Positions 14,157 through 57,860 of a DNA stretch of 64,000 nt are shown in pieces. The position numbers and the translations under genes are program-made. Position 1 is the stretch's first letter. Each line of letters begins with the position of its first letter. The DNA comes from an uncultured Nitrospirales bacterium (GTDB lineage: Bacteria; Nitrospirota; Nitrospiria; Nitrospirales; NS-4). The notes beneath the pieces are model-generated. The model saw only the letters and a program-made list of their open reading frames with translations. It made no database searches and was not told the origin of the DNA. Location of the stretch: positions 5,124-69,123 of the forward strand of contig CAYYLQ010000012.1 in the NCBI GenBank assembly GCA_964472655.1, in the 5' to 3' direction.

Positions 14157-14158
14157 GA

Positions 14159-14926: not shown

Positions 14927-14967
14927 TTACCTCCATGTGCGGAAGCCGATGCGGCGGGGTGGGGTGC

Positions 14968-15297
14968 TTAGGTTCGAATCGTCCGACTGAGATCGGTTGG
15001 TTTGGCTCCTAGGACGAGAAGCGAGCTAACCAGCAGGTCCATCGAGACGGACGGATCGCTCGCTTCCATCTTGGCTACTCTGGACTGGCTGGAACGCAGG
15101 CGTTTTGCGAGGTCAACCTGCGAAAGGCCGTGCCGTTGGCGGCGCTCGCGAAGGCTGCGGCTCAAGGAGAGCTTCAACTCGATGAGCGCGGCGTCGGCAT
15201 CCGACAAGCCCAGAAACTCCTGCACCGAGCCGACAGCCCATCCGGCCGCTTTGAGTTTCTCGCGCTTGCTCTTTTTCACGCCGTCGGCCCTTGCCAA
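14968..15297 (-). CDS. XRE-family HTH protein (HigA-antitoxin-like)
   Basis: 'GWAVGSVQEFLGLSDADAALIELKLSLSRSLRERRQRHGLSQVDLAKRLRSSQSRVAKMEA' matches the HigA-type XRE antitoxin family. The track start is TTG 15297, only 3 nt after the predicted -10, so in-frame GTG 15279 may be the real start. Confidence 0.8.
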   Translation of the reverse strand: MARADGVKKSKREKLKAAGWAVGSVQEFLGLSDADAALIELKLSLSRSLRERRQRHGLSQVDLAKRLRSSQSRVAKMEASDPSVSMDLLVSSLLVLGAKPTDLSRTIRT

Positions 15298-15299
15298 AT

Positions 15300-15328
15300 A
15301 CTATATGTCAAATTTGACATAATGTCAA
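15300..15328 (-). promoter_or_regulatory. Sigma-70 promoter with embedded palindromic operator
   Basis: The minus strand reads TTGACA (15328-15323), a 17-nt spacer, then TATAGT (15305-15300). The perfect 16-bp palindrome ATGTCAAATTTGACAT (15305-15320) fills the spacer, and an extra half-site ATGTCAA sits at 15322-15328. Confidence 0.55.
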
Positions 15329-15421
15329 TCGTCATCTTTTCGGCATCGCAATATTCCTTTTGACACGTAGTTGCCGGCAAAGGTTACTTTCGGCAGGACT
15401 ACTGGCGGAAGCAGATGCGAG

Positions 15422-15844
15422 CTATTCCTTGACTTCCCAGTGAGGATTCCAGGCGATTTCCCAGAGGTGGCCGTCTAAATCCTGGAAGTACCCGGCGTAG
15501 CCTCCCCAGAAGCGATCGTGCGCAGGGTCGGTGATCGTGGCGCCTGCTTTGGCGGCCTGCGCCATGACCGCATCGACTTCCTGTTTGGATTTGACGTTAT
15601 GGCCGAGGGAGAATTCCGTCGGGCTTGGCGGACTCACGGCGATCTTGGCGTCCTTGGCTAGGGATTTTTTAGGCCACAGCGCCAGGATCAAATCGTCGTT
15701 CATTTCAAAGAAGACGACGGCACCGTCCTCGAATTCCGTGCCGATGATCCCTTCCGTCGCCAGGCCCATCCCGTCGCGGTAAAAAGCCAGCGACTTTTCC
15801 AAATCCCTGACGCCCAACGTGATGAGTTTAATCCGCGGTTTCAT
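15422..15844 (-). CDS. VOC-family (glyoxalase/bleomycin-resistance fold) protein
   Basis: 140 aa. '[24 protein letters not shown]' and the C-terminal '[17 protein letters not shown]' are typical of VOC proteins. Confidence 0.85.
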
Positions 15845-15910
15845 AGCCTCCTCCGGAGCCGCCGCCTGGGGCTTGTGGCCTTGCGTGGCCTCAGCTTAGA
15901 ATGACGCATT

Positions 15911-18463
15911 ATGCCTGATCCTCGATCCATCGTCATCAAGGGCGCGCGGGAGCACAACCTCAAGAACCTCGACCTGGCGATCCCCCGCGACCAGCTCGTC
16001 GTGATCACCGGGCTGTCCGGCTCCGGCAAATCCTCGCTCGCCTTCGACACGATCTACGCCGAGGGCCAGCGCCGCTATGTCGAATCGCTCTCGGCCTACG
16101 CCCGCCAGTTCCTCGAACAGATGGACAAGCCCGACGTGGACTCCATCGAAGGGCTCTCGCCGGCCATCGCCATCGAACAGAAGACCACGTCGCGCAACCC
16201 CCGCTCCACCGTGGGGACCGTCACCGAGATCTACGACTATCTCCGGCTGCTCTTCGCCCGCATCGGCAAGCCACACTGCCCCCAGTGCGGCGATCCCATC
16301 ACGGCCCAGACGGTTCAGCAAATGGTGGACGCGCTGATGGCCCTGCCGTCAGGCTCGAAGCTCTCGATCCTGGCGCCCATCGTGCGCGACCGCAAGGGTG
16401 AGTATCGCAAGGAACTTCAAGATTCGCGCCGCAGCGGGTTCATCCGCGCGCGGGTGGACGGCAAGCCGCACGACCTCGCGGACGAGATTGCGCTGGACAA
16501 GCAGAAGAAACACACGATCGAGATCGTGGTGGACCGTGTCGTCCTCAAGGACGACGAGCCGACGATGCGCCGGCTGGCGGATTCGCTCGAGATCGCGCTC
16601 AAGCAGGCCCACGGCCTGGTTGTGATCGATCTGGACGGGAAGAAAGACCTCATCTACAGCGAGAAGCTGGCCTGCGTGCGCTGCGGCTTCAGCTATTCGG
16701 AATTGACGCCGCGCCTCTTTTCCTTCAACAGCCCCCACGGTGCCTGTCCCGCCTGCGACGGGCTCGGCCACGAGCCGCCCAGAGGCTGTCCGGTGTTCGA
16801 TGAGGATGACGCATATGAAGAAGAGGACTACGGGTCGCTGACGCTCTGTTCCATCTGCAAGGGCGACCGCCTGAAACCCGAAAGCCTCTCGGTCCTGATC
16901 GACCGCAAGTCCATCGCCGCGGTCACGCGGCTGTCCATCCGGGACGCGGCCGGGTTCTTCCAGAAACTGAAGCTCACAGAGCGCGAACAGTTCATCGCGC
17001 ACCGCATCCTGAAAGAGATCCGGGAGCGCCTGGGCTTTCTCATCAACGTCGGCCTGGACTACCTGACGTTGGATCGGGCCGCGGCCACGCTCTCTGGCGG
17101 CGAAGGCCAGCGCATCCGCCTGGCCACGCAGATCGGGTCCGGGCTGGTCGGTGTCCTCTATATCCTGGATGAGCCGTCCATCGGGCTGCACCAGCGGGAC
17201 AACAAGCGGCTGCTCGACACGTTGCTCCGGCTGCGCGATCTCGGCAATACGGTGATCGTGGTCGAGCATGACGCCGAGACCATGCGGCACGCGGATTACA
17301 TTCTCGACCTCGGCCCAGGCCCAGGCGTGCACGGGGGCTTCGTTGTCGCCAAAGGTTCGCCGGCCGAGGTCATGGCCAGCACGGAATCGCTGACCGGACA
17401 GTACCTGCGCGGGGATATGAACATCACGCTCCCGCACCGGGCGCGGCAGGCCGGCCGCGCCCTCACCGTCGTGAGCGCCAAAGAGCACAACCTCAAGAAT
17501 GTGACGGTGAAGATTCCGCTGGGCCTGCTGACCTGCGTGACTGGCGTGTCGGGGTCTGGCAAGAGCACCCTGCTCTTCGACGTCCTCTACCGGAGCCTAC
17601 GCGAGCTGCTCTATGGCGAAAAAGTGCGCGGTGTGCCCAAGCGGCCGTGGATCGCAGGCTGCTCGGACATCAAGGGCATCGAGCACATCGACAAGATCGT
17701 CAACATCGATCAGTCGCCGATCGGGCGCACGCCGCGCTCCAACCCGGCGACCTACACCGGCCTGTTCACCTACATCCGCGACCTCTTTGCGAGCCTGCCC
17801 GAGTCGCGGGTGCGCGGCTACAAAGCGGGACGCTACTCGTTCAACGTGAAGGGCGGGCGCTGCGAAGCCTGCGGGGGCGACGGCATGATCAAGATCGAGA
17901 TGCACTTCCTGCCGGACGTCTACGTGACCTGCGAAGTCTGCAAGGGCCGGCGCTACAACCGGGAGACGCTCGACGTGCGCCACAAGGAGAAGAGCATCGC
18001 CGACGTCCTGGACATGACTGTCGAGGAAGCGCTGGCCTTCTTCCAGCACCTGCCGCTCATCAAGGCCAAGCTGGCGACGCTCAACGACGTGGGGCTCGGC
18101 TACATCAAGCTCGGCCAGTCGGCCACGACGCTGTCGGGAGGCGAAGCGCAGCGGGTGAAGCTGTCACGCGAACTGTCGAAGCGGGCGACCGGCCGCACCC
18201 TCTATATCCTGGATGAGCCCACCACCGGCCTGCACTTTGCGGACATTCAGAAGCTGCTCGAGGTGCTCAATCGCCTGGTGGAGTCCGGCAACAGCGTCGT
18301 GGTGATCGAGCACAACCTCGACGTGATTCGCAACGCCGACTGGATCATCGATCTGGGGCCGGAAGGCGGAGACCGCGGCGGCGAGATCGTCGCCGTCGGC
18401 CCACCCAAAGAAGTGGCGGGCGTCAAGGCCTCCCATACCGGAGGCGTGTTGCGCGGGCGTTAG
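15911..18463 (+). CDS. uvrA: Excinuclease ABC subunit A, atypically short (insertion domain missing)
   Basis: 850 aa. Two ABC modules ([18 protein letters not shown]; LSGGE signatures), zinc modules, and a UvrB-binding-type segment. Only about 27 residues link 'CPACDGLG' to 'CSICKGDRL'. Confidence 0.9.
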
Positions 18464-21986: not shown

Positions 21987-22766
21987 GTGATTGCTTGGAC
22001 CGGAAGGAAAACGGTCGAGGGCGTCGCCTATGTGGCGGCGGTTCTCGACCTGGGCGTTCGCGCCTTTCGCGAACTCTTCTCGCTCGCGCGGCGTGGGCGG
22101 GGGGAAGCCTTCCGAGTCATCGCCAGCCAGATCCTGTTCACCGGCGTCGATGCACTGCCGGTCGTCGGCGCGATTGCTCTGATGCTGGGCCTCATCATCA
22201 TCATCCAGGCCGGGATCACGCTCCCGCAGGTCGGAGCGGGCGCCTTTCTCGCCAAGATCATCGAGTTGACGGTGGTCCATGAGCTGGGCCCGCTCATTAC
22301 GGCTTTCATCGTGATCTGGCGGTCAGGGACTGCCATCTGCACGGAGTTGGGTAACATGCAGGTCGGCCAGGAGATCGCCGCGCTCGAGGCGATGGGCATC
22401 AGCCTGATCCGCTTCCTGGTGATGCCGCGCGTGGCCGGAATGATCGTGGCCATGGTCTGCTTGACGATCTATTTCGACTTCATCGCGATCGTGGGCGGGT
22501 TCCTGGTAGCCAAGGTCCACCTCACCATTCCCGTCCTGGTCTACCTGGAGGAGATTCAGGATGCGCTCACGGTTTCCGACGTCCTGATCACCGTCATCAA
22601 GAGCGTCCTGTTCGGATTCACCATCGCCGTCATCTGCTGCCATCACGGGCTCTCCGTCGTGGGCGCCACCACCGAGGTGCCCCAGCAGACGACGCGGGCG
22701 ATGCTCAACACGGTCACCGTTTGCCTGGTCCTCGACATCATCGTGTCGGTCGGCTTTTACCTGTGA
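21987..22766 (+). CDS. mlaE: MlaE-family ABC transporter permease
   Basis: 259 aa with a GTG start. Typical MlaE/YrbE sequence ('ILFTGVDALPVVG', 'ELGPLITAFIV..RSGTAICTELGNMQV.QEI.ALEAMGI'). Confidence 0.85.
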   Translation: MIAWTGRKTVEGVAYVAAVLDLGVRAFRELFSLARRGRGEAFRVIASQILFTGVDALPVVGAIALMLGLIIIIQAGITLPQVGAGAFLAKIIELTVVHELGPLITAFIVIWRSGTAICTELGNMQVGQEIAALEAMGISLIRFLVMPRVAGMIVAMVCLTIYFDFIAIVGGFLVAKVHLTIPVLVYLEEIQDALTVSDVLITVIKSVLFGFTIAVICCHHGLSVVGATTEVPQQTTRAMLNTVTVCLVLDIIVSVGFYL

Positions 22767-22768
22767 CC

Positions 22769-23503
22769 ATGGCGGAAGCGGTGATCACATTGGACCGCGT
22801 TTCGGCGAGCGAAGGGAAGCAGACGCCCGTCGAGGACATCAGCTTGACCGTACAGCGGGGCGAGGCCGTCGCCCTGGTTGGGCCCAATGCGTCGGGCAAG
22901 GGCCTCGTGCTCAGGCTCTGCGCGGGACTGGAGGAACCCGCGTCCGGAACGGTGCGGGTGCTGGAAGTGGACCCGGCCCGCGCGACGGAAGAGCAGCGCC
23001 TGGCGCTGCGCCAGCGGGTGGGATTCGTCTTTGCCAAACCCGCGCTGATCAGCAACATGACTGTCTTCGACAACGTCGCGCTCCCGCTTCGCTATCATGC
23101 CGTCTTTCCGGAGATCGAGCTCCGCGAACGGGTACTGACGCGCTTGGCGGAGTGCGGCGTGGACGCCTTTCGCGACCGGATGCCGGCCGACTTGGCGTTG
23201 GGTGATGCGCGCCAGGCGGCGATCGCACGGGCCATGGTGATGGACCCGGATCTCCTGTGCGTGGAAGAGGTGCTGGTCGGATTGGACGCCGATGATCTCA
23301 TCCGCGTCCGCAAACTCCTGGAGCGCTACCGACGGGAACGGGGGCTGACGATCGTCACCACGATCAACGCGCCCACCGGTCTGTTCCGCATGATGGACCG
23401 CCTGGCCCTCATCCGGGACGGCCGTCTCGTGGCCGTGTGCCCGCCGGCCGAGGCGCCGCTGGTGGTTGATCCGATGGTGCAGGATTTTTTTGGATCCCAG
23501 TAA
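22769..23503 (+). CDS. MlaF-like ABC nucleotide-binding subunit with degenerate catalytic motifs
   Basis: Starts at an internal ATG (aa 17 of track ORF 22721..23503). ABC fold, but Walker A is 'GPNASGKG', the Q-loop position is K, the signature is 'LALGD', Walker B is 'LLCVEE' and the H-loop is 'TTIN'. Confidence 0.75.
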   Translation: MAEAVITLDRVSASEGKQTPVEDISLTVQRGEAVALVGPNASGKGLVLRLCAGLEEPASGTVRVLEVDPARATEEQRLALRQRVGFVFAKPALISNMTVFDNVALPLRYHAVFPEIELRERVLTRLAECGVDAFRDRMPADLALGDARQAAIARAMVMDPDLLCVEEVLVGLDADDLIRVRKLLERYRRERGLTIVTTINAPTGLFRMMDRLALIRDGRLVAVCPPAEAPLVVDPMVQDFFGSQ

Positions 23504-23516
23504 AGGAGAAACAGCC

Positions 23517-24518
23517 ATGCATTACTCTCACCGCCTCTCGCAGACCCGTCTCCATCAGATCGTTGGCTGGTTTGTGCTGGTGCCGATCCTTGTCCTCGTC
23601 GGCGTGCTGGTGCTGGTGGCCCAAAGCGAGAACCTGTTCGAAGAAAAATATCACGTGACCACCCTTTTCAGTGAAAGCTTCGGCTTGAAGCCCGGCAAGC
23701 CGGTGATGCTCTTGGGGATCCAGATCGGCAAGGTCACTAAGGTCGAGGTGACCGCGCAGAACGACGCCGAGGTGACCATGGAGATACTGAAGAAGTATCA
23801 GGACAAGATCCGGCAAAACTCCGTCGCAAAGACCGGCAAGTCCGGAGGCTTCGTGGGCGAGCCGCAGGTCGAGATCACGGTGGGCAACAAGAGCAAACCG
23901 GTTGTCGAGGAGGGAGGGCACATCGAAGCGGAGGAACCGTTCAACATCGCCGACTTCATGACCGAGGTCAAGCCGCTGGTGGAGACCGTCAAGAGGACGC
24001 TCGTCCGGGTGGAAGAGATCACCCAGGACGTGCATGCGACGGTGAAGACCGGCAACGAGACTCTCGGCCACGTGCGGGAGGCGTCCACCCGGCTGCCCGC
24101 CGTGCTGGAGAACGTGAAGGAAACGACGGCGACGATCCGCGAAGCCGCGCTGAGCACGGCCGAACAGCTCCCGGCCATCGTGGCCGGCGTGCGCGTGAGT
24201 GTGGATCGGGCCGGCGAGGCGGCGAAGGACGTGAGGACCGCGACCGCCAAGCTGCCGGCGCTCGTCGAGTCGGTTCAGGGCTCCGCGGACAACGTCAAGG
24301 CGATCACGGGCGATCTCCGGAGCACGGTCCATCAGGATATGTCGCCGCTGGTGCGGTCGGCGCAGGATATGGTGGACGATGTCGGCGAGGTTGTGACCGG
24401 CGCGAAAAAAACCTTCCCGGTCAGTGTCTTCGCGGCCAAGGGGCGCGCGGCGCGGGCAGAGGAGCGGGCCGCCGTCGTGCCCAGGAGTCTACGCGCCGAT
24501 GAGGTGGGCAAGGAATGA
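23517..24518 (+). CDS. mlaD: MlaD/MCE-domain protein
   Basis: ATG 23517 lies after AAAGGAGA. N-terminal TM, then the MCE domain 'YHVTTLFSESFGLKPGKPVMLLGIQIGKVTKVEV', then a long helical C-terminus. Confidence 0.8.
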   Translation: MHYSHRLSQTRLHQIVGWFVLVPILVLVGVLVLVAQSENLFEEKYHVTTLFSESFGLKPGKPVMLLGIQIGKVTKVEVTAQNDAEVTMEILKKYQDKIRQNSVAKTGKSGGFVGEPQVEITVGNKSKPVVEEGGHIEAEEPFNIADFMTEVKPLVETVKRTLVRVEEITQDVHATVKTGNETLGHVREASTRLPAVLENVKETTATIREAALSTAEQLPAIVAGVRVSVDRAGEAAKDVRTATAKLPALVESVQGSADNVKAITGDLRSTVHQDMSPLVRSAQDMVDDVGEVVTGAKKTFPVSVFAAKGRAARAEERAAVVPRSLRADEVGKE

Positions 24519-25438
24519 GACGAGCCGCGCCGGTCATCCTGCTGCTCGCGCTCCTGGCGGGCGGGTGCGTCGGCGGCGCCGCGGGTCCCGAACTGCCCCC
24601 GCTGGCCTCGAAGGTCCGGGACCTCCGTGATAAGGGGCACCTCGCGCTGGCCCGCGGGGATGTGGCGCGGGCCGGGATGATCTTTGATGAGGCGCGACGT
24701 CTGGCGGAGAGCCTGGACGACCGGTCTGGCCTTGCCGTGGCGCTCAACGATTTAGGCACGGTGGCGGCTCTCCAAGGCGAGTATCCCGCGGCGGCCGAAT
24801 TCCATCGCCGGGCCTATGGGATTGCGGTGGAGATCGGCGATCAGGCGCTTGCCGTCGAGGGTCTTAGCTATCGCGGGCAGGCGGCGCATCTTATGGGGGA
24901 TCCCGCGGCGGCGCTCGGCCATTACTCGCAGGCGCTCGCCCTTGCCCGCGAGATCAAGGATCGCCGGGGCGAGGCCGTTGTTCTGAACAACCTGGGTCTG
25001 CTCCAACAGGCGCGCGGCGAGCTGGACCGGGCGGAGCAGAGCTTTCAGCAGGCCCTGGCGATCAACACCGACCTCGCCGAGCGGCGAGCCATGGCCAGCA
25101 ACCACAGCAACCTCGGCGCGCTGTCGGAGAAGCGGGGCCGCCGCGCCGAGGCCCGCAGCCGCTATGAGCAGGCGCTGACTCTCGACAAGGAGACGGAGAG
25201 CCGTCCGGCGATCGAGGCCGACCTTGTCAACCTCGGCCGGCTCTCGGAAGAGGAAAATCATTCGGAAGAGGCCGTGGGCTTTTACGAGCGCGCCTACCGC
25301 GGCTACCTCGCGCTGAATCACGTTCAGAAGGCGATGGATGCCGGGAAGCGTCTGGTCCGGGCCGCGAAGGCCGCCGGGAGAGACGCCGTTGCCGCGGCCT
25401 ACCAGGCCGAACTGAACGCCCTGAGCCCGCAACCCTAG
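24515..25438 (+). CDS. TPR-repeat lipoprotein
   Basis: The ATG overlaps the mlaD stop (ATGA). Lipobox 'LLAGGC'; repeated 'A..Y.QAL.L' TPR units. Confidence 0.8.
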   Translation: MRRAAPVILLLALLAGGCVGGAAGPELPPLASKVRDLRDKGHLALARGDVARAGMIFDEARRLAESLDDRSGLAVALNDLGTVAALQGEYPAAAEFHRRAYGIAVEIGDQALAVEGLSYRGQAAHLMGDPAAALGHYSQALALAREIKDRRGEAVVLNNLGLLQQARGELDRAEQSFQQALAINTDLAERRAMASNHSNLGALSEKRGRRAEARSRYEQALTLDKETESRPAIEADLVNLGRLSEEENHSEEAVGFYERAYRGYLALNHVQKAMDAGKRLVRAAKAAGRDAVAAAYQAELNALSPQP

Positions 25439-25572
25439 GCCCGGACAATTCTGTCCGGCCACGTCCTTCGCACTATCTCCCCCTGTTCATTTTCGAACGG
25501 AGTTCCATGCCCCTCACGCGGAAGGCCTGGCCAGGCTTTCCGTTCTTGGTCAACGCATAGACAGGTTCGGGG

Positions 25573-25588
25573 CTGGCACCGCCCTTGC
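25573..25588 (+). promoter_or_regulatory. Sigma-54 (-24/-12) promoter
   Basis: TGGCAC-cgccc-TTGCT is an exact match to the TGGCAC-N5-TTGCW consensus. It lies 64 nt upstream of ATG 25652, in a 213-nt intergenic region. Confidence 0.6.
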
Positions 25589-25651
25589 TATGTCTTTACC
25601 TATAGGCGCCCCTTGCGGTGCCGCCAAGGGAATACACAACAAGGTATCAAC

Positions 25652-25831
25652 ATGGAAACGGTGAGCGTGATGGTGGTGATCTTCCTGCTAGGCGGGTTCC
25701 TTCGCCGCTTGAGCGGCGACCGCGACCGGGCGCGCCGGTTGGGGCCCGGAATGCCGGCCAGCTTTCTGTATTTCACGGGAAGGCGGTTGGTGATCTCCAA
25801 GCGCACCCATGCACATCCGCCGGAGGAATAG
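25652..25831 (+). CDS. Small membrane protein (59 aa), paralogue of 30991..31152
   Basis: Starts at an internal ATG of track ORF 25613..25831. N-terminal TM, a basic linker, and a conserved 'GPGMPASFLYFTGRRLVISKRT' shared with the second copy. Weak SD. Confidence 0.5.
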   Translation: METVSVMVVIFLLGGFLRRLSGDRDRARRLGPGMPASFLYFTGRRLVISKRTHAHPPEE

Positions 25832-25843
25832 GGAGGAAGGGAT

Positions 25844-26227
25844 ATGGAGAAAATGGAGCCGATCAACAGGGCTGGAGGGACGATGGTTCGCGAGCGTCGG
25901 AAGGCGCGGCGCTACCACCTTCTGACGCGCGTGGATATCCTCGCGGCCGGTGACGCCAACGTCTATTGGGGGAGCATGAGCAACCTGAGCTGGACCGGCG
26001 TAGCTCTCTGCGCCAAGCAGTACCTGAAACCGGGCCAGACGGTCACGATCCGCTTCCGGTTCCACGGTGAGGAGGGATGCGAAACGACGGAATCGCTGAC
26101 CGCGCAGGTCATCTGGCGGAACGGCGACAACACGGGGCTGGAATTCGCTCCGCCGCTGACCACCGGTTCCCCCACGCTGCGGCAGGCGTCGTTTCTTGTC
26201 GAGTATCTCATGATGAAGGAATCGTGA
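25844..26227 (+). CDS. PilZ-domain protein (c-di-GMP receptor motifs), copy 1
   Basis: 'RERRKARRY' (RxxxR) and 'SNLSWTG' (D/NxSxxG). GGGAGGAAGG lies before ATG 25844. Confidence 0.8.
   Translation: MEKMEPINRAGGTMVRERRKARRYHLLTRVDILAAGDANVYWGSMSNLSWTGVALCAKQYLKPGQTVTIRFRFHGEEGCETTESLTAQVIWRNGDNTGLEFAPPLTTGSPTLRQASFLVEYLMMKES
25883..26227 (+). repeat. Direct repeat copy 1 (345 nt, PilZ coding)
   Basis: Aligns without gaps to 32880..33224, with identical runs of 38 and 34 nt (hand-checked). Confidence 0.85.
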
Positions 26228-26254
26228 CGGTCATCGGCAGGGTCGAGGCGCACC

Positions 26255-27664
26255 TTAATCCTGAGACGGGTCGCGTTGAGGCGCCTCCACGGGGGAGGCC
26301 GCTTTCTCTTCCTTGGCGTCTCCGGGGTGGAGGCCGTGTTTCCTGAGCAGCTTGTAGAAGTCGGCGCGGTACCGGCCGGCGATCTGGGCGGCGCGCGAGA
26401 CGTTGCCGCCGGTCAGTTGTAAGACTTCCTTCAGGTATTCCCGCTCGAAATCCTCCCGGGCCTCGGTGAGAGGCTTCACCTGGTTCTCCGCAGGCTGGCT
26501 GACGGCAGGAAGCAGATCGGCCGTGATCATGTCCTGCGTGGAGAGGACCACAGCTTTTTCAATCGTGTTCTCCAGCTCGCGGACGTTGCCGGGCCAGCGG
26601 TGGAGCATCAGCTTCTGCATGGCCTCCGGCAAAAACCCCCGGATGTCCTTGCGCATCCGTTTGGTGCTCTGTTTCAGAAAATGCTGGGCCAGCGGCGGAA
26701 CATCGTCCCGCCGTTCCCGGAGTGGAGGGACAACCAGCGGAACGACCTGGATCCGATAGTAGAGATCCTCCCGGAACGTCCCGGCCCGGACCGCCTGTTC
26801 GAGATCCTTGTTCGTCGCGATGATGATCCGGGCGTCGATCTTCGTCGGGCGCTCGGCGCCGACCTCCAGGACTTCGCGTTCCTGGAGGGCGCGAAGGAGC
26901 TTGGCCTGCAGGGCCAGGGGCATTTCGCTGACCTCGTCCAAGAAGAGAGTCCCCCCGGCGGCGCTCTGAAAGAGCCCGCGTTTCGCATACTGGGCGCCGG
27001 TGAACGCCCCCTTGACGTGACCGAAGAGTTCGCTCTCGAAGAGGGTTTCCGGGATAGCGCTGCAGTTCAGCGCGACGAACGGTCCCCGCGCCCGCGGGCT
27101 GTTGCAGTGGATCACGCGGGCGATCACTTCCTTGCCGGTGCCGGTCTCGCCGGAGAGGCAGACCGTGGCGTCGGTCTCGGCGATGCGCGCGACCTGTTGG
27201 AGCAGGGTCCGCATCTTGGCGCTTCGGGCCACCACGTTTTCCAGTCCATAGAGTTCCGCGACCAGCGAGCGGAGCCGCTCGATCTCGCGGCTCATCCGTT
27301 GCTGAGCCAGGGCCTTCCCGATCACGATCTTGAACTCCCTGTCGTCGAAGGGCTTCGTGAGATAGCCGTAAGCCCCTTTTTGCATGGCCTCGACGGCATT
27401 GGGGATGCTCCCATGGGCGGTGAGGATCAGGATCGGCAGGGACGGATGGATGAGCAGGAGTTCCTCCATGACCGTCAACCCATCCCGGTCCGGGAGCCGG
27501 AGGTCGGTGACGGCCAGGTCGAAGACCTCCCGCTTGGCGACGTCGATGGCCTCTTCGCCGGTCGCGCAGGCGGTGACGGCGAAGCCCATGGCCGTCAGGC
27601 GCATCTTGAGGAGCTGGAGCAGGCCCTGATCATCGTCCACTACGAGTATGCGTTCCTGTGCCAT
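26255..27664 (-). CDS. Sigma-54-dependent response regulator (REC + AAA+ EBP + Fis-type HTH)
   Basis: 'ILVVDDD...DLAVTDLRLPD' receiver domain, Walker A 'GETGTGKE', 'GAFTGA', and C-terminal 'GGNVSRAAQIAGRYRADFYKLLRKHGL'. ATG 27664 is preceded by GAGGA. Confidence 0.9.
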   Translation of the reverse strand: MAQERILVVDDDQGLLQLLKMRLTAMGFAVTACATGEEAIDVAKREVFDLAVTDLRLPDRDGLTVMEELLLIHPSLPILILTAHGSIPNAVEAMQKGAYGYLTKPFDDREFKIVIGKALAQQRMSREIERLRSLVAELYGLENVVARSAKMRTLLQQVARIAETDATVCLSGETGTGKEVIARVIHCNSPRARGPFVALNCSAIPETLFESELFGHVKGAFTGAQYAKRGLFQSAAGGTLFLDEVSEMPLALQAKLLRALQEREVLEVGAERPTKIDARIIIATNKDLEQAVRAGTFREDLYYRIQVVPLVVPPLRERRDDVPPLAQHFLKQSTKRMRKDIRGFLPEAMQKLMLHRWPGNVRELENTIEKAVVLSTQDMITADLLPAVSQPAENQVKPLTEAREDFEREYLKEVLQLTGGNVSRAAQIAGRYRADFYKLLRKHGLHPGDAKEEKAASPVEAPQRDPSQD

Positions 27665-27672
27665 CGGTATCC

Positions 27673-28269
27673 TCAAGGATGACTGTCTTTGTCGGCCGCG
27701 GACGGCATTCTGGTCGGCGGCCGCGTGGGCCGGCTCTTTTCTTTCATTTCCTGATCGATCCGTTTCAGCGCATCAAGCTGTTGCGTCAATTCTTCCACCT
27801 TTTTGTCCCGCGCCTTCACCTCGCGTTGGAACACCAGAGCCGACGAGAACTCCAGATCCAGCAAGTCACGAACGAGGCGGTCCGTGGCCTCGGCGAACGC
27901 ACTATGCTGCGCGAAAAAGATCGGAGGATTTTGCAAGAACTGCAGCCAGAACTGGCTTGAAGCGGCCAGGCGGCTTTGGGGAGCCACGGCGATGACGTCC
28001 TGGAAGTGCTTGGCCGCGACCGTTTGGTCTTCGTACAGGGCCACCAGCGCGCGGGTGAAGTGCGCGCGGTCACAGATGTGGGTTTCGGCGCAGGCGGCCA
28101 GCGAGGCGTCCTGCTCGCGGGCCAGGGCCTGGTAGCGCTGAGCGTCGCGCGGGTCCAGGCTGAAGAGAGGAGCGGACGGAATAGGATGGCTCCGCAGCGG
28201 CGCGCAGGCTCCCGTGCTGGCGATGAGCGCCAACAGGAACCCTCCGATCCATGGTCCCTCGAGTCTCAT
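27673..28269 (-). CDS. Lipoprotein with coiled-coil C-terminus, embedded between kinase and regulator genes
   Basis: Starts at an internal ATG (aa 124 of track ORF 27673..28638) that overlaps the kinase stop (ATGA). Lipobox 'LIASTGAC'. Confidence 0.65.
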   Translation of the reverse strand: MRLEGPWIGGFLLALIASTGACAPLRSHPIPSAPLFSLDPRDAQRYQALAREQDASLAACAETHICDRAHFTRALVALYEDQTVAAKHFQDVIAVAPQSRLAASSQFWLQFLQNPPIFFAQHSAFAEATDRLVRDLLDLEFSSALVFQREVKARDKKVEELTQQLDALKRIDQEMKEKSRPTRPPTRMPSAADKDSHP

Positions 28270-29807
28270 GCGTTGCCTCCCGAGCGCGCCAGGGGAAGGA
28301 TGAAGCGAACCGCCGTGCCTTTGCCGAGGTCGCTTTCGACCCAAATCTGTCCCCCGTGCGCTTCGACCACTTTCTTGGCCAGCGCCAACCCGAGACCGCT
28401 GCCGGCCACGGCAGGCCGCGCTTGCATGCGTCCTTGGTAGAAACGCTCGAAGATATGGGGGAGGTCTTCGGCAGAAATCCCCGGCCCCGTATCCGACACG
28501 GAGATCCGGATGACGCCTGTCCTGGCGTCCGGCTCCATGTGGAGGTTGACCGTCGCCCCTTCCGGACTGAACTTGAGGGCGTTTGAAAGAAGATTGTCCA
28601 GAACCTGTTCGAGCCGGGGACCGTCGGCCGGAACCCACAATCGTCCGGGCGGAGTCTCGGTCAGGATCCGGATGCGCTTGCCCTCCGCCAACAGCCGGAC
28701 CTTGTTCACCGAGGTCTCCGCAATACGCGTCAAGTCGGTGGGGGCGATCCGGTATTCCATCATCCCGGCTTCCATCTTCGAGAGATCGAGCAGGGTGGAG
28801 ATCAAGTGGATCAATCGCTCGCTGCTGTCCATGATGATCCGGAGCGTCTCGCGCTGTTCCTGGCTCAGGGGGCCGGGCACCTCATCCAGAAGGAGTTGCG
28901 TGCCTTCCCGGATGGAGGCCAGCGGGGTGCGCAACTCATGGGAGACATGCGCCAGAAACTCGGCTTTCATGTCGTCCAGCTCCTGGAGTTTTCTGGCCAG
29001 CCCGTTCACGGTGTCCACCAGCTCTCGCAGGTCGTAGGGCGCGGCGACGTCCACGGACTGTCCGAACTGTCCCTGACCGATCCGTCGGATGTGCTCCTGC
29101 AGCTGACGCAAGGGATACAGAATGCTGTAGGTCGCGATGCCGGCCAGACCCAATCCGAGAAGGATGGCCGCGATCACGAGTTGTTGCGTCATGATTTCGG
29201 CGCGGGCCGACCGCGCACGAGAGTCACTGACAAGCGCGCCCACCCGTTCCTCGTGCAGGTTGACATAGGCGTCCAGCGCCGCGGTCATCCGGACCATGAG
29301 CGTGTCCCGCTGCACCTCGTAGCTGACCGGCTTGGGGTTGTGGCTGGAGCGTCGATCGGCCGCGCCGTGGAATAGAGTCTCGTATTCCTGGTGGAGTCGC
29401 TCGAGCCCTTTCAGGAGTCGCTGCGTGTCGGCGGCGGATTCCTGCTCCAGCAGGGCCGCAAGCGTCCGGCGAAAGTCCTCCGCTTCCCCGTCGAAATCGC
29501 CCAGAAAAATGGGATCGGGAACCGCCAGGTATTTCTTCTCGCTCCGGAGCTGGGTCATGAGACTGGCGAGGAGGCGCTTGGCGGTGTCAATGGCGGGGTA
29601 GTGATAGGAGACCAGTTCCGTGCTTAAGACCGTGAGTTGCTGGAGTTGGTTGAGCGCGTAGAAATTGACCCCCGCCATGACCGCGATGATGGCTAGGCAG
29701 CTGAGCGCCAATCGCCAGAAGATCGAAAGCTTCACCGAAGGCCTTCCTTTTTCGAAGGAAACCTTTGAATCAACCCGGCTAGTTTTCCCTACTGTAGGAG
29801 AATCCAT
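28266..29807 (-). CDS. Sensor histidine kinase (2 TM, periplasmic helical sensor, HAMP, HisKA, HATPase_c)
   Basis: H-box 'FLAHVSHELRTPL', N-box 'LDNLLSNALKFS', and G-boxes 'DTGPGI' and 'GSGLGLA'. Confidence 0.9.
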   Translation of the reverse strand: MDSPTVGKTSRVDSKVSFEKGRPSVKLSIFWRLALSCLAIIAVMAGVNFYALNQLQQLTVLSTELVSYHYPAIDTAKRLLASLMTQLRSEKKYLAVPDPIFLGDFDGEAEDFRRTLAALLEQESAADTQRLLKGLERLHQEYETLFHGAADRRSSHNPKPVSYEVQRDTLMVRMTAALDAYVNLHEERVGALVSDSRARSARAEIMTQQLVIAAILLGLGLAGIATYSILYPLRQLQEHIRRIGQGQFGQSVDVAAPYDLRELVDTVNGLARKLQELDDMKAEFLAHVSHELRTPLASIREGTQLLLDEVPGPLSQEQRETLRIIMDSSERLIHLISTLLDLSKMEAGMMEYRIAPTDLTRIAETSVNKVRLLAEGKRIRILTETPPGRLWVPADGPRLEQVLDNLLSNALKFSPEGATVNLHMEPDARTGVIRISVSDTGPGISAEDLPHIFERFYQGRMQARPAVAGSGLGLALAKKVVEAHGGQIWVESDLGKGTAVRFILPLARSGGNA

Positions 29808-29840
29808 ACAGGACCAGTCAATTGTAAATCAATAAGATCC

Positions 29841-29860
29841 GGGTTTTCACGTGGAAACCC
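29841..29860. promoter_or_regulatory. Near-palindrome, candidate enhancer (UAS) for the sigma-54 activator
   Basis: GGGTTTTCAC/GTGGAAACCC (one mismatched pair) lies about 100 nt upstream of the -24 element at 29953. A second inverted repeat, AATGTCCC-N17-GGGACATT, sits at 29913-29945. Confidence 0.3.
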
Positions 29861-29952
29861 TGAATACAACGTCCTTCAGTGTACACCTTCCTGACGCCGG
29901 AATTGGGCTGACAATGTCCCCCATCATGTTTGAATGAGGGACATTTCTGCTA

Positions 29953-29968
29953 TGGCCTCCGCCTTGCT
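29953..29968 (+). promoter_or_regulatory. Sigma-54 (-24/-12) promoter
   Basis: TGGCCT-ccgcc-TTGCT, with GG and GC at canonical spacing, about 100 nt upstream of ATG 30069. Divergent from the kinase operon. Confidence 0.55.
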
Positions 29969-30068
29969 CACAAGCAAAAAAGACGTATGCCAGGAGCCTG
30001 GTGAAGGTTCTGCCCGGGGGGTTAGCCGGCGACGGCATGAAAGAAATGAAGAGAAAGGAGGCTCTGCG

Positions 30069-30404
30069 ATGAAGATACTCGTCGTCACACTGTTCAGCTT
30101 GGCGTTGGTGATGGGCCTGGTCGTTACATCCAGCCACGCTGCTTCACCCAACCAGACCGATCCGACCCTCGCCAAGTTTGTCGGCGGCACGGTTGAGGGG
30201 ATTGATCCGATGCAGAAAATCGTCAGCGTCCAATCCGAAGAAAAAGGCGAAGTGCGGCTCCTCGCATTTACGGATGCCGAAATGGTGAAGGGACTGACCA
30301 AAGGGGATCGTGTGGTGATCGAGCTGGACGAGCGTGGCATGGCCAAGAAGATAGTCAAGGCAGAACCTTCTTCAAACGGCACGCCCGATTCGACGAAGAA
30401 TTGA
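30069..30404 (+). CDS. Small secreted protein (111 aa)
   Basis: Starts at an internal ATG after AAAGGAGG (7-nt spacer). Signal peptide MKILVVTLFSLALVMGLVVTSSHA. The upstream part of the track ORF overlaps the sigma-54 promoter. Confidence 0.6.
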   Translation: MKILVVTLFSLALVMGLVVTSSHAASPNQTDPTLAKFVGGTVEGIDPMQKIVSVQSEEKGEVRLLAFTDAEMVKGLTKGDRVVIELDERGMAKKIVKAEPSSNGTPDSTKN

Positions 30405-30433
30405 GCCGGCCCTTTGCAGAGCGAAAGGAGCGA

Positions 30434-30724
30434 ATGATACCGGAGAACAGCTGGCACCCGTGGAGGATGACGACCGTCGGTCTGTTGCTGGTAGGCGCGA
30501 CGGTCTTCGTGACCACGCTGGTGATGGGATACCGGAACAGTCTGCAGGAGGCCCCGACGCCACGGGCGACGATGCACTCGTCCGGCTCGGTCCGGAAGGC
30601 CTCGGTGCCGAGCCAGAGCGATGTGGATGCGTGCAAGGCTTACGCCCAGCAGCGCTCGGGGGCGGGGGGCGATACCGAATACCGGACCGCCTACCGTTCC
30701 TGCATGCGTCAGAAAGGGCACTGA
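30434..30724 (+). CDS. Single-TM protein with Cys-containing C-terminal domain (96 aa)
   Basis: ATG 30434 lies after AAAGGAG. TM segment 'TTVGLLLVGATVFVTTLVMG'. No family recognised. Confidence 0.5.
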   Translation: MIPENSWHPWRMTTVGLLLVGATVFVTTLVMGYRNSLQEAPTPRATMHSSGSVRKASVPSQSDVDACKAYAQQRSGAGGDTEYRTAYRSCMRQKGH

Positions 30725-30739
30725 AGGAGGTGAGGGAGC

Positions 30740-30928
30740 GTGGAACAATTGGTTGACGGGCTGCAACTCGTGGGCTTTTTAGTGGTGGGCGTAACCGTCC
30801 TCGCCGCCCTGGTGGCGGGCGTCATCTGTATCGCGGTCTTCCTGTACATGACCGATCGGAAGATCGTGATCGTCCAGGGCCAGCTGCGTCCCCATGAGAC
30901 CGATGTGCCCGCTGAAATTCGATCGTGA
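30740..30928 (+). CDS. Small TM protein (62 aa) carrying the 'FLYMTDRKIVIV' motif
   Basis: GTG start after GAAGGAGG. One long hydrophobic helix followed by the motif shared with neighbouring small proteins. Confidence 0.45.
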   Translation: MEQLVDGLQLVGFLVVGVTVLAALVAGVICIAVFLYMTDRKIVIVQGQLRPHETDVPAEIRS

Positions 30929-30990
30929 GGCAGCGCGTTGATTGGCGCGGTCGTGGGGAGTCCCGTAAGCAAGGCTTTTGGAGGAATGAG

Positions 30991-31152
30991 ATGGAGGACA
31001 TAGGCGCGTTCTTTGTCTTCGCCGTTGCCATGGGCGTCGTCCTTCGCACGGCGGTCAGGGGCAAACGGACGCGACGGCGGGGGCCGGGAACGCCGGCCCG
31101 TTTCGTTCACTTCACGGGCCGGCGGCTCAGAATCATCACGCGAACCGACTGA
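30991..31152 (+). CDS. Small membrane protein (53 aa), paralogue of 25652..25831
   Basis: ATG 30991 lies after GGAGGA (5-nt spacer). 'GPGTPARFVHFTGRRLRIITRT' aligns with copy 1. Confidence 0.55.
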   Translation: MEDIGAFFVFAVAMGVVLRTAVRGKRTRRRGPGTPARFVHFTGRRLRIITRTD

Positions 31153-31592
31153 TGAGCTCGAGGAGGAAACCGATGCGAACGATGATGCGACGGACAGTGT
31201 TCGTGCAGGTGTTGATATGGACCTTGGCCGTGACGACCCTTCTGACCGGGATTGTTCCGCCGGACGCCCGGGCGATGCTGGCCCCGCCCACGGCGGCCGG
31301 TGAGCCGGGCGCCGGCCTGAATCGAGCCGTTGATCTCCAAACGGTGCAGAGCGCCTTGGAGACCAAAGTGGTCAGTCAACGATTGGCGGACTACGGCTTG
31401 AACCAGGAGGAGATCAGCGCGCGCGTGAATCGGTTGTCGGACGCCCAGTTACATCAACTGGCCACGCAAATCGACGCGATGATGCCCGCCGGTGATGCGG
31501 GCTTTGGCATCGTGATCGCGCTGCTGGTTATCGCGATTCTGGCAGTCATTCTGATCTATCTGCTGGACCACCGAATCGTGATCACGAAGTAG
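31152..31592 (+). CDS. PA2779-family-like protein (N-terminal signal/TM, C-terminal TM)
   Basis: 'RLADYGLNQEEISARVNRLSDAQLHQLATQIDAMMPAGDAG' followed by a C-terminal TM matches my recollection of the PA2779 family. It lies adjacent to a C39-like peptidase. Confidence 0.65.
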   Translation: MSSRRKPMRTMMRRTVFVQVLIWTLAVTTLLTGIVPPDARAMLAPPTAAGEPGAGLNRAVDLQTVQSALETKVVSQRLADYGLNQEEISARVNRLSDAQLHQLATQIDAMMPAGDAGFGIVIALLVIAILAVILIYLLDHRIVITK

Positions 31593-31612: not shown

Positions 31613-32239
31613 ATGCGAGGACGAACCATGTGTACAGGGCGCCGGGGGATCGGTCGAGGGGCGGCGAGGCTGAGCGTGAGCATATGGAGTCTCGTGATGG
31701 TCCTCGGGTGCGCGGGTCCGCCGCTTGCGGACCGCGCGACTGGCGTCCCGACGCAGTCTGAAGCGTCCGCCCACCGAGTCGCCGTGCCGTTCTTCCCGGA
31801 CGATACGGACCAATGCGGGCCCGCGGTCCTTGCCAGCGTTCTGACCTATTGGGGTTTCAGAACCGACCCCGTGGCGTTGAAGGAAGAAATCTATCTGCCG
31901 CGGCTGAAGGGCACCCTGCCGCTTGATCTCCTGTTGGCCGCGCAGGCGCGAGGCCTTGAGGCCGAAATCTATGAAGGCGGGCTCAACGATCTGAAATCCG
32001 AACTGGAAGCCGGCCGTCCGCTGGTGGCGTTGCTGGACCTGGGATTCGCAATCTTTCCTCAAGGCCATTACGTGGTGGTGACCGGCTATGACGACCGGCG
32101 CCAGGGCGTGTACGTCCACTCGAGCCTGGAGCAGGACGTGTTTATTCCTTACGAGCGGTTCCTCCGGAGCTGGGACAAGACCGGCCGGTGGACCCTCCTG
32201 GTGTCGCCGCCTGAAAGCCGTCTTCGGAGTCACGCATGA
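31613..32239 (+). CDS. C39-like (PA2778-type) cysteine peptidase lipoprotein
   Basis: Lipobox 'VMVLGCAG', catalytic-type 'QCGPAVLASVL', and 'GHYVVVTGYD'. Confidence 0.8.
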   Translation: MRGRTMCTGRRGIGRGAARLSVSIWSLVMVLGCAGPPLADRATGVPTQSEASAHRVAVPFFPDDTDQCGPAVLASVLTYWGFRTDPVALKEEIYLPRLKGTLPLDLLLAAQARGLEAEIYEGGLNDLKSELEAGRPLVALLDLGFAIFPQGHYVVVTGYDDRRQGVYVHSSLEQDVFIPYERFLRSWDKTGRWTLLVSPPESRLRSHA

Positions 32240-32835
32240 GCAGACGAAGACCGTCGTGGGGGGGAGCGCTGCTGCTGATGGCTTTGCTGGGAAGCGTGCC
32301 GGCCTGTTCGAGCCTTCCACGGATTGTGATCCTGCACGATCCGTTGACGCCCCAAGAGCACGTGACGCTGGGGGAAGCGTATCAGGCGCAGGGCGATCGG
32401 GAGATGGCGGGGCGAGAATTCGCGATCGCGTTGCGTCAACGGCCGGAATACGTCCCGGCCCTCATCGGGATAGGCAACCTTTCGTTTGAACGGGAAGCGC
32501 TGGAAGAAGCCGAAGCGTTCTATCGGCGGGCTTTGGATGCCGCGCCTGATCATCCCGGCGCCAGCAATAACCTTGCGATGGTGTATCTGGCGCGCGGCGA
32601 TCGGTTGGATGAGGCGGAACGGATGGCCCGCAACGCCTTGGAACGTGGAGGTTCCCTCCGACCCTATGCGCTGGATACCTTGGCTAGGATTTACATGCTG
32701 CAGGGACGCTACCGTGAGGCCCGGCGTGCTCTCACACTGGCCGAAGCGATAGTTCCTCCGGAAGACACCCATTTTCACCAGTGGCTGAGCCGGTCGCGCC
32801 GCGAACTGGCCGCCGTTTATCCGTCGGACGAATGA
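32236..32835 (+). CDS. TPR-repeat lipoprotein
   Basis: The ATG overlaps the peptidase stop (ATGA). Lipobox 'LGSVPAC'. TPR units such as 'LGEAYQAQGDREMAGREFAIAL' and 'EAEAFYRRALDAAP'. Confidence 0.8.
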   Translation: MSRRRPSWGGALLLMALLGSVPACSSLPRIVILHDPLTPQEHVTLGEAYQAQGDREMAGREFAIALRQRPEYVPALIGIGNLSFEREALEEAEAFYRRALDAAPDHPGASNNLAMVYLARGDRLDEAERMARNALERGGSLRPYALDTLARIYMLQGRYREARRALTLAEAIVPPEDTHFHQWLSRSRRELAAVYPSDE

Positions 32836-32849: not shown

Positions 32850-33224
32850 ATGGAGCCAGCGAGAAGGACCGTAGGGACAATGGTGGGCGAGCGTCGGAAG
32901 ACGCGGGGCTACCACCTTCTGACGCGCGTGGATATTCTGGTGGCCGGTGATTCCAACGTTTATTGGGGGAGCATGAGCAACCTGAGCTGGACCGGCGTGG
33001 CTCTCTGCGCCAAGCAGTACCTGAAACCGGGCCGGACGGTCACAATCCGTTTTCGGTTCCATGGCGCGGAAGGACGCGAGGTGACGGAATCGCTGGCGGC
33101 GGAGGTCATTTGGCGGAACGGCGACAACACGGGCCTGGAATTCACCCCGCCGTTGGCCACCGGTTCTCCGGCTCTGCAGCAGGCACCGTTTCTTGTCGCA
33201 CATCTCATGATGAAAGGAGCGTGA
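32850..33224 (+). CDS. PilZ-domain protein, copy 2
   Basis: 'GERRKTRGY' and 'SNLSWTG'. 94 of 114 aligned residues are identical to copy 1 (hand count). Confidence 0.8.
   Translation: MEPARRTVGTMVGERRKTRGYHLLTRVDILVAGDSNVYWGSMSNLSWTGVALCAKQYLKPGRTVTIRFRFHGAEGREVTESLAAEVIWRNGDNTGLEFTPPLATGSPALQQAPFLVAHLMMKGA
32880..33224 (+). repeat. Direct repeat copy 2 (345 nt, PilZ coding)
   Basis: See 25883..26227. Confidence 0.85.
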
Positions 33225-33235: not shown

Positions 33236-33451
33236 ATGAATTTAACCATGGAGCGACCGAAGCTTTCGACCGTGCAGGAGGTAGCCACCTACTTGGCCGT
33301 CAACAAACGGACCGTCTATCGCCTGCTGAAAGACCGCCGGCTGCCTGCTTACAGAGTCGGCGGACAGTGGCGATTCAAGCTGGAGGTCATCGAAGACTGG
33401 ATGCGCCGGCAGGGCGACCTGAAACACAGAAAGGCTCTCGCCAACGTTTGA
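33236..33451 (+). CDS. Excisionase-family (MerR-superfamily) HTH DNA-binding protein
   Basis: 'LSTVQEVATYLAVNKRTVYRLLKDRRLPAYRVGGQWRFKLEVIEDWM' is the canonical excisionase-type HTH. The start may instead be 33230 (GTG) or 33248. Confidence 0.8.
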   Translation: MNLTMERPKLSTVQEVATYLAVNKRTVYRLLKDRRLPAYRVGGQWRFKLEVIEDWMRRQGDLKHRKALANV

Positions 33452-56142: not shown

Positions 56143-56148
56143 CTTCTT

Positions 56149-56544: not shown

Positions 56545-56606
56545 AAGGCTATTGTAAGCCTCTGCCCGCAGATGGTCGAGGCTATAGTCAGGATCAACAG
56601 AAGAAA

Positions 56607-57212: not shown

Positions 57213-57227
57213 CGGAGTTTGTGTCCT

Positions 57228-57852: not shown

Positions 57853-57860
57853 AAATGGAA

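Follow-up and report, generated by a model that had tools for sequence, protein, structure and literature searches.

Results

A PA2779-type tail recurs on three neighbouring mini-proteins

We analysed a 64,000-nt stretch of DNA (hereafter the window) from the 2.17-Mb genome assembly of an uncultured Nitrospirales bacterium. Four small membrane proteins encoded in a 6-kb part of the window end in a similar short, basic tail. One of them belongs to the PA2779/DUF6627 family and the other three are mini-proteins, which we named sA, sB and sC. We are highly confident that the shared motif is real and that it equals the PA2779 tail. Judged by sequence, what is new is the reuse of this tail on two small-protein families, sA/sB and sC, which have no family model and accompany PilZ genes; the PA2779/DUF6627 family itself was known. 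We put about equal weight for and against the further reading that the mini-proteins reuse the tail as a pairing element at the membrane surface, near PilZ.

The initial annotation listed four open reading frames (ORFs) with a common C-terminal motif. Translation and alignment returned all four, at the positions and with the C-terminal sequences it had given. The C-terminal regions read ...SFLYFTGRRLVISKRT... in sA, ...VFLYMTDRKIVIVQG... in sC, ...RFVHFTGRRLRIITRTD in sB and ...LIYLLDHRIVITK in the PA2779-like protein. In each small family the tail was the best-kept part after the membrane helix, with the consensus PAxF..TGRRLxI..R in sA/sB and VFLYM[TA][DN]R[KR]IxI in sC.

Regular expressions were run over the entire assembly, translated in six frames (4,336,236 residues). 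The strict pattern [YFH][FMLIV]T[GD]R[RK][LIV].I was matched three times, by sA, sB and sC. A looser pattern that admits PA2779 had four matches, all of them the four ORFs, and the 7-residue core T[GD]R[RK][LIV].I also had four, three of which lay at this locus. Further, hidden Markov model (HMM) profiles that excluded the window sequences were run against the 42,201 six-frame ORFs (at least 25 amino acids, aa) of the genome. The profile of the PA2779 "GD + helix + tail" segment, built from 138 proteins of other genomes, ranked PA2779 first, sC second (E = 2.6) and sA eighth. The sC-tail profile, built from eight relatives, ranked sC first, sA second (E = 1.2) and PA2779 127th. These ranks within the genome bear out the claim that the tag recurs beyond chance.

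Profile-profile comparisons with hhalign aligned the motifs in register for each pair of families. The values were E = 7e-5 and probability 63% over 25 columns for sC and PA2779, E = 3e-4 and 40% for sC and sA/sB, and E = 0.009 and 4.6% for sA/sB and PA2779. The likeness of the tails is, by these measures, genuine but short and weak; it is strongest between sC and PA2779 and between sC and sA, and weakest for sB. In the alignments it is sC that links the PA2779 and sA/sB tails.

The tail belongs to the PA2779/DUF6627 family in Nitrospirota

The protein at the downstream end of the motif-bearing set is a member of the PA2779 family (NF033919, 78 bits, cut-off 40; PF20332, 38.8 bits, cut-off 27). 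Since its second ATG, at 31173, follows the Shine-Dalgarno sequence GAGGAGG and the copy in the database is 139 aa long, translation probably starts there rather than at 31152. The C-terminal layout of the family consists of a conserved (G)GD, about 18-20 hydrophobic residues and L-[TL]-[GDEN]-H-[RK]-[VI]-x-[VI]-(T)K; an example from Nitrospirota ends ...GGDGLGVVIALLVIVILVIIILQLTGHKVIVTK.

The initial annotation had suggested checking whether PA2779 members elsewhere carry the tag, and they do. A phylum-wide set of 38 PA2779-type ORFs (30 loci) had it in 31 cases, counted by eye, while the other seven have Gly/Tyr-rich or ...LLGLTSVFPF... ends. Of the closest 120 homologues in the database, 115 conform to [TLMSA][GDEN][HRGKLQ][RKHE][VILM]x[VILMF], placed 1-7 residues from the end, and the remaining five are one-residue variants of this expression. 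In 140 PA2779 sequences H140 and L137 were at least 90% conserved. The members closest to the NCBIfam model (loci L051 and L052; 130 bits) end in ...LLGLTSVFPF... and not with the tail. Therefore, as far as sequences tell, the tail is the Nitrospirota form of the PA2779/DUF6627 C-terminus and is not universal in the family. Because the tail is typical of the Nitrospirota homologues, PA2779, which the initial annotation had treated as a partial fourth case, is by the same comparison the parent of the motif.

The initial annotation knew of no described motif of this kind. This has to be amended, as the tail is the conserved C-terminus, in this phylum, of a known family; it stands in so far as we found no paper on it. 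No study of PA2779/DUF6627 or of its tail turned up in the literature searched, and work in other journals is possible. The sole mention in a functional context that we found, in an excerpt of its source, terms PA2779 a "hypothetic protein". The family thus has named models and no known function, and our analysis singles out two of its features: the near-invariant juxtamembrane His/Arg tail and the Gly-Gly before the helix are, from their conservation, the parts most likely to matter.

Of 151 genomes sampled from the phylum, 56 had PA2779-family genes with a C39-TPR partner. The named homologues of PA2779 and of the sA/sB proteins come from Nitrospirota (Nitrospirae) metagenome-assembled genomes.

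PA2779 genes often occur as tandem pairs or triplets (L057, L062, L070 and G139:C18), with two tail types, ...ELTGHHVVI... and ...IYLLEGRIEIKK, side by side. This arrangement suggests hetero-oligomers.

sA, sB and sC are conserved small genes

We found several signs that the small ORFs are conserved as genes, as the initial annotation required: their frames are open in relatives, the ratios of nonsynonymous to synonymous substitution rates (dN/dS) are low, and Shine-Dalgarno sequences precede sC (GAAGGAGG, at normal spacing) and sB (GGAGGA, 6 nt upstream). Median pairwise dN/dS was 0.28 for sC (36 pairs) and 0.37 for sA/sB (89 pairs). By these criteria of conservation sA, sB and sC are genuine genes. 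None of the three matched any NCBIfam or Pfam family at E <=0.01, and hence they are not members of the PA2779 family.

That sA and sB are paralogues of one conserved family was confirmed by family alignments and database clusters. With sB as the query, 16 places were found in 12 genomes of the same family (two genera; E from 1e-8 to 5e-16), all with uninterrupted frames; in the order's three other families (40 genomes) no match was better than E = 0.009. In a collection of 5.8 billion proteins the relatives of sA/sB (52-100 aa) fell into 86 clusters, and no Pfam domain was present in any of them. When 1.84 billion representatives were searched exhaustively with the profile, seven sequences and no distant kin were found. 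Sequence conservation thus describes sA/sB as a lineage-restricted family under purifying selection. An Arg-rich linker of about 20 residues parts the helix from the tail in these proteins.

We lean towards the view that sC was derived from the PA2779 anchor, with the GDG, the helix and the tail and without the signal sequence or the periplasmic part. The PA2779 ending IYLLDRRIEIKK was aligned with sC by tblastn unprompted, and variants of sC read FLYMADRRIEI. The start of sC, (M)ELLGDGLQLVGFL, recalls GGDGLGVVIALL of PA2779; the hydrophobic stretch of sC is about 10 residues longer. In genome G006 sC lies directly upstream of PA2779, and the two share a locus in G011 and in the window. The three mini-proteins (53-62 aa) have nothing before the helix, and sC has the anchor module alone in common with PA2779. 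On this comparison sC would be at most a fragment-derived relative of the PA2779 family. The best ESM Atlas scores of sC (0.83) and sA (0.81) were within the range of shuffled sequences.

We considered sA/sB as a regulatory leader peptide of PilZ. This was rejected because the amino-acid sequence of sA/sB is conserved, and not only the open frame.

Several minor features of the small genes were seen in relatives and in the window. In locus L076 (G011:C9, 1942-3049, minus strand) sC and PA2779 are separated by two extra genes, whose products are a 172-aa lipoprotein-like protein and a secreted, Gly/Ser-rich protein of 189 aa. In L006/L101 (G006:C129) a decayed sC with an in-frame stop (…VFLYRC*RR) is located upstream of an sA-type gene. 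The equivalent spacer of the window, between TPR1 and sA (25439-25651), held no sC remnant in three frames. The sA orthologue of L092 (G004:C3) has a 6-residue insertion (…PARSGRRADFLYFTGRRRVI…) just before the tail, which reads RRRVI. Within the sB coding sequence, at 31081-31099, there is a terminator-like, GC-rich hairpin of 7 G-C pairs with a T-rich run after it; it is probably coincidental, and it could attenuate read-through into PA2779.

The mini-proteins accompany a PilZ gene

We collected 22 genes with at least 196 bits to PilZ1 or PilZ2, the two PilZ genes of the window, from 21 genomes of the window's family. Directly upstream of 18 of these 22 orthologues we found sA/sB. At ten of these 18 loci there is an intact sC as well, and at one a broken copy. 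Two further orthologues, PilZ2 of the window and one in G011, have PA2779-C39-TPR2 upstream instead. At the 11 loci of more distant PilZ paralogues there was no sA/sB. By gene order, therefore, the single-domain PilZ belongs to a conserved cassette with sC and sA/sB, and an NtrC-type regulator gene adjoins it. Of the 21 genomes, nine yielded a PA2779.

The motifs RxxxR and D/NxSxxG of the PilZ domain bind cyclic di-GMP (c-di-GMP). PilZ1 and PilZ2 scored 44.1 and 36.6 bits against PF07238 (cut-off 22.5), and ERRxxxR and NxSxxG were kept in 14 aligned PilZ sequences which included both. The neighbours named in the initial annotation, i.e. a PA2779 family protein, a C39 peptidase, TPR proteins and two PilZ genes, were all recovered with NCBIfam and Pfam.

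In L002/L093 (G013:C125) the ~67 C-terminal residues of TPR2 are still encoded, at 56-58% identity, in about 200 nt between sB and PilZ, while PA2779 and C39 are missing. Since this is a C-terminal remnant of TPR2, it suggests that PA2779-C39 was deleted in G013 and that the arrangement of the window is older.

Elsewhere in the phylum C39 and TPR genes follow PA2779 in 10 of 12 fully scanned loci, the exceptions being L056 and L058. The C39 and TPR parts are fused in L051 and L052 and split in L053-L055, L057, L059, L060 and L062. The surroundings of PA2779 at these places are housekeeping genes (alanine racemase, pyrH-frr-tsf-rpsB, aminotransferase-era-recO).

A docking strand at the membrane surface is proposed

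In all four proteins basic residues follow the helix and acidic or neutral residues precede it, and by the positive-inside rule the tails should face the cytoplasm. The tail is the juxtamembrane end of the C-terminal membrane anchor of PA2779/DUF6627 in Nitrospirota, and the three extra mini-proteins carry a tail of the same kind. We propose that in the cytoplasm it would form a short strand or turn, by which it would pair with a partner located at the surface of the membrane. This partner might be the tails of other small anchors and/or the edge strand of the neighbouring soluble PilZ c-di-GMP receptor. Sensing of c-di-GMP would thereby be kept at the membrane, much as BcsE is retained there by BcsF through beta-sheet complementation. 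What the sequences show is conservation of the tail in three families and, for two of these, a gene order that ties them to PilZ.

BcsF of the Escherichia coli cellulose secretion system is a single-pass inner-membrane peptide of ~60 aa. Through its C-terminal tail, which is cytosolic, it contributes a beta-strand to the sheet of BcsE, a c-di-GMP sensor, and brings BcsE to the membrane (PMC11470070). The sA/sB proteins have the size and layout of BcsF and likewise adjoin a gene for a putative c-di-GMP receptor. There are also differences. No sequence relationship to BcsF (PF11120) exists, sA and sB have no Pfam match, the score of the Atlas neighbour "BcsF" (0.76) is at chance level, and the putative partner here is a PilZ barrel and not BcsE. 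No bcs or cellulose genes were present in the locus. We therefore use BcsF for sA/sB as a functional analogy alone. The suggestion of the initial annotation that the tag is a PilZ-binding peptide or assembly strand is plausible in the light of the gene order and of this precedent. The chance that the tail is an interaction strand seems to us slightly short of even. That PilZ is what it pairs with we find rather doubtful.

Several results weigh against the docking proposal. The regular expressions were composed after the sequences had been viewed; this is the reason why the HMM tests, which do not use them, were added. In those tests sB was reported neither by the PA2779-anchor profile nor by the sC-tail profile among the 42,201 ORFs, and a profile of the sA/sB tail (12 relatives) retrieved sB and sA and, among 1478 reported ORFs, neither sC nor PA2779. 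With hhalign probabilities as low as 4.6% and 40%, common descent of sA/sB with the others is no more than a possibility. The sC tail of G011 (TDQEILI) has no basic residues. The AlphaFold2 monomer of PA2779 (140-sequence alignment; mean predicted local distance difference test score, pLDDT, 58.7) has no strand, and its tail is a helix end plus coil; that of sA (14 sequences, mean pLDDT 64.4) has no strand either, and its tail is low-confidence coil with pLDDT ~50. In both monomers the tail is modelled with too much uncertainty to be relied on. Fused sA/sB-PilZ or longer forms were not found, which is weak evidence. Two of the 22 orthologous PilZ genes have no small gene upstream. Finally, we scanned the first 150 of 248 selected ORFs near PA2779 elsewhere in the phylum (12 loci fully and L063 in part), and none of these 150 proteins matched PF07238 at E <=1e-4. 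Since PilZ was absent among the proteins scanned at these loci, their gene content indicates that PilZ cannot be the general partner of the PA2779 tail; self-association or a common partner is therefore to be considered for the parent family.

Alternative explanations of the shared tail

The main rival to the docking strand is inheritance only. The tail would then be an anchoring or topology element of the PA2779 helix (stop-transfer and positive-inside), and sC, perhaps also sA/sB, would be truncated or remodelled duplicates with no specific partner, so that the link to PilZ would be one of gene order. The resemblance of sC to the PA2779 anchor in hhalign, HMM rank and tblastn fits this explanation, and tandem PA2779 duplicates with two tail types (L057, L062, L070) supply spare copies for truncation. 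PA2779 loci elsewhere without PilZ among the proteins scanned and monomer models that give the tail no defined structure also speak for it. However, a near-invariant His and the fixed [VI]x[VI] spacing are not needed for a plain positive-inside signal. Further, sA/sB keep the tail ~20 linker residues away from the helix and so it cannot serve there as a stop-transfer element, and both the sA/sB and the sC families are under purifying selection. We consider inheritance only unlikely, and well above negligible.

The initial annotation also listed a peptidase substrate tag. In this explanation the tail is a recognition or substrate tag of the C39-like peptidase, which would process all four small proteins. 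No more than 6 kb separates the four genes from that of C39, three of them share its gene string, and PA2779 and C39 are adjacent in 10 of 12 fully scanned loci. However, the C39 protein and TPR2 start with what we read as lipoprotein-type signal sequences and should therefore be periplasmic, while the tail, being on the basic side of the helix, presumably faces the cytoplasm, where a peptidase of the periplasm could not read it. Moreover, sA/sB-PilZ cassettes persist in all five tested genomes in which no PA2779 and no C39 domain of PA2778 type was found (completeness 90-98%, one of them 98% complete); there NF033920 was matched through its TPR part only. C39 enzymes cut after Gly-Gly. The (G)GD before the helix is a better candidate for a Gly-Gly-directed enzyme, and from its position on the outer side of the PA2779 helix we regard it as the likely C39 site. 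The substrate-tag explanation is on these grounds very improbable.

Chance or convergence of short basic, beta-branched segments, with no common origin or function, seems hardly credible: the single HMM matches are not significant alone (E 1.2-2.6), sB was missed by two of three HMMs and the motif is merely 7-9 residues long, but in two independent searches the best match outside the query family among 42,201 ORFs was another neighbouring gene here, the motifs were in register in all three hhalign comparisons, strict and loose regular-expression matches in 4.3 million residues were confined to this 6-kb stretch, and the tails are conserved within each family.

Comparison with known processing systems

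The window gene is a member of PA2779/DUF6627, a family with a PA2778-type partner (NF033920); its tail is the usual one in Nitrospirota, and C39 and TPR genes follow it. The match of the C39 gene to NF033920 spans profile positions 4-149 and, at 137.1 bits, lies under the 150-bit cut-off and short of full length. Together, C39 and TPR2 correspond to the PA2778-type architecture split into two overlapping genes. Compared with the PA2779 family, sC shares the GDG-helix-tail module, while sC, sA and sB are without the signal sequence and the periplasmic DUF6627 part.

C-terminal sorting signals are known from the pairs GlyGly-CTERM/rhombosortase, PEP-CTERM/exosortase and LPXTG/sortase. The PA2779 end resembles them in that a (G)GD signature, a hydrophobic helix and a basic tail follow each other and a dedicated peptidase is encoded next door. 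It differs in that the enzyme here would be a periplasmic C39-type peptidase and not intramembrane and sortase-like, the basic tail is fixed in sequence beyond Arg/Lys, and processing is putative; in addition, sA/sB have no signature before the helix.

Double-glycine leader peptides are cleaved by C39 peptidase domains. Similarly, the helical stretch LSDxQxHQLAxxxDxxxxGGD of PA2779 ends in Gly-Gly before the helix, and its gene adjoins that of a C39 peptidase. However, the PA2779 "leader" would be a periplasmic domain of ~80 residues that is exported by Sec, the C39 peptidase is predicted to be a free lipoprotein and not part of an ABC exporter, the spacing of conserved residues in PA2779 is not an exact match, and cleavage is putative here.

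A more specific version of the proposal is quite improbable in our estimate. The working product of PA2779 would be a membrane peptide of ~33 residues (helix and His/Arg tail), left after a C39 cut at Gly-Gly, and the genes of sC, sA and sB would encode such peptides directly, without a leader. Together they would be a class of membrane-embedded peptide adaptors whose cytoplasmic strand recruits soluble regulators, here the PilZ c-di-GMP receptor. If this is true, c-di-GMP output would be coupled to a proteolytic signal of the envelope, which is often encoded beside Mla lipid-transport genes.

In the window's lineage the tail appears to have been copied onto free-standing mini-proteins that are tied to PilZ genes and putative sigma-54 control. 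If the tail is a docking strand, a tiny membrane peptide that positions a c-di-GMP sensor would be known from a second case besides BcsF, and the PA2779 family would have its first functional handle. If it is not, the gain is in annotation: two unannotated small-protein families (sA/sB and sC) and a tail that belongs to a known family.

Organization and regulation of the locus

The genes are arranged in two related plus-strand strings within 21.9-33.5 kb of the window, with a divergent two-component pair between them (Table 1). String 1 has the order MlaE, ABC ATPase, MlaD, TPR1, sA, PilZ1. String 2 consists of an exported protein, a membrane protein, sC, sB, PA2779, C39, TPR2, PilZ2 and HTH_17, and its genes overlap or are separated by gaps of at most 62 nt.

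Table 1. Positions of the genes and promoter elements of the two strings in the window.
Feature	Position	Strand	Evidence and characteristics
MlaE (21987-22766), ABC ATPase (22721-23503), MlaD (23466-24518)	21987..24518	+	Pfam MlaE 213.6, ABC_tran 80.5, MlaD 59.5 bits
TPR1, TPR lipoprotein-like	24515..25438	+	Pfam TPR_12 107.8 bits; start overlaps MlaD stop
Sigma-54-type promoter TGGCACCGCCCTTGC	25574..25588	+	64 nt upstream of sA start codon
sA, 59 aa	25652..25831	+	N-terminal hydrophobic helix, Arg-rich linker, GPGxPAxF; tail YFTGRRLVI at 25769-25795
PilZ1, single-domain PilZ	25844..26227	+	Pfam PilZ 44.1 bits; 12 nt downstream of sA
NtrC-type sigma-54 activator (response regulator)	26255..27676	-	Pfam Sigma54_activat 236, Response_reg 98 bits
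Sensor histidine kinase	28266..29807	-	HAMP, HisKA, HATPase_c
Weak candidate sigma-54 element aTGGCctCCGCCTTGCT	29952..29968	+	Upstream of second cassette; 3 mismatches to 17-mer
Small exported protein	30070..30404	+	ATG at 30070 after AAGGAGG
Small membrane protein, Cys-containing C-terminal domain	30401..30724	+	Sequence
sC, 62 aa	30740..30928	+	(M)ExLxDGLQ, long hydrophobic helix; tail YMTDRKIVI at 30845-30871
sB, 53 aa, sA paralogue	30991..31152	+	Tail HFTGRRLRI at 31108-31134
PA2779/DUF6627 protein	31152..31592 (likely start 31173)	+	Signal sequence, helical periplasmic part, (G)GD, C-terminal helix; tail YLLDHRIVITK at 31557-31583
C39-type cysteine peptidase	31613..32239	+	Lipoprotein-like signal sequence; Pfam Peptidase_C39_2, Peptidase_C39; NF033920 137.1 bits
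TPR2	32236..32835	+	NF033920 profile 155-253, 39.2 bits; many TPR models
PilZ2	32850..33224	+	Pfam PilZ 36.6 bits; 81% identical to PilZ1
HTH_17 DNA-binding protein	33248..33451	+	Pfam HTH_17 63.2 bits; just downstream of PilZ2

The initial annotation called the small proteins co-regulated. For string 1 this would fit the candidate promoter: sA-PilZ1 lies behind the -24/-12 element TGGCAC-N5-TTGC at 25574-25588, an exact sigma-54 consensus and the sole exact match in the window. Identical or similar elements were found upstream of the cassettes in 7 of 15 related loci scanned, and the gene of the NtrC-type activator (26255..27676) adjoins the sA-PilZ1 string. String 2 has the 3-mismatch element alone, and matches at that level are not enriched in the window; at the equivalent place the relatives L072, L002, L004 and L008 have better elements. 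With an element of background level in front of string 2, co-regulation of both strings is no more than plausible.

The orthologues of TPR1 are 67-89% identical and lie upstream of the sC/sA/sB-PilZ cassette in relatives. The exported protein is kept at the head of cassette 2 in relatives and has a weak CusF-like match, below the cut-off. Orthologues of the membrane protein that follows it (41-54% identical) precede sC in relatives; it had no family match in NCBIfam or Pfam.

MlaEFD-TPR1 directly precede sA in the window (21987-25438). In two distant lineages, L053 (G167) and L059 (G068), MlaE-MlaF-MlaD share a gene string with PA2779-C39-TPR. The PA2779 system and Mla lipid transport may be functionally linked.

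Two stretches of the window, 14001-16000 and 56001-58000, have a G+C content of 0.515 and 0.524, compared with ~0.63 elsewhere. They could be islands or RNA genes.

The HTH_17 gene follows PilZ2. A similar protein, as judged by eye, is encoded directly before a third close PilZ paralogue on another contig of the same genome, without sA/sB (G000, contig C9, 71988-72221 and 72256-72636). PilZ and an HTH_17-like gene may be a recurring pair.

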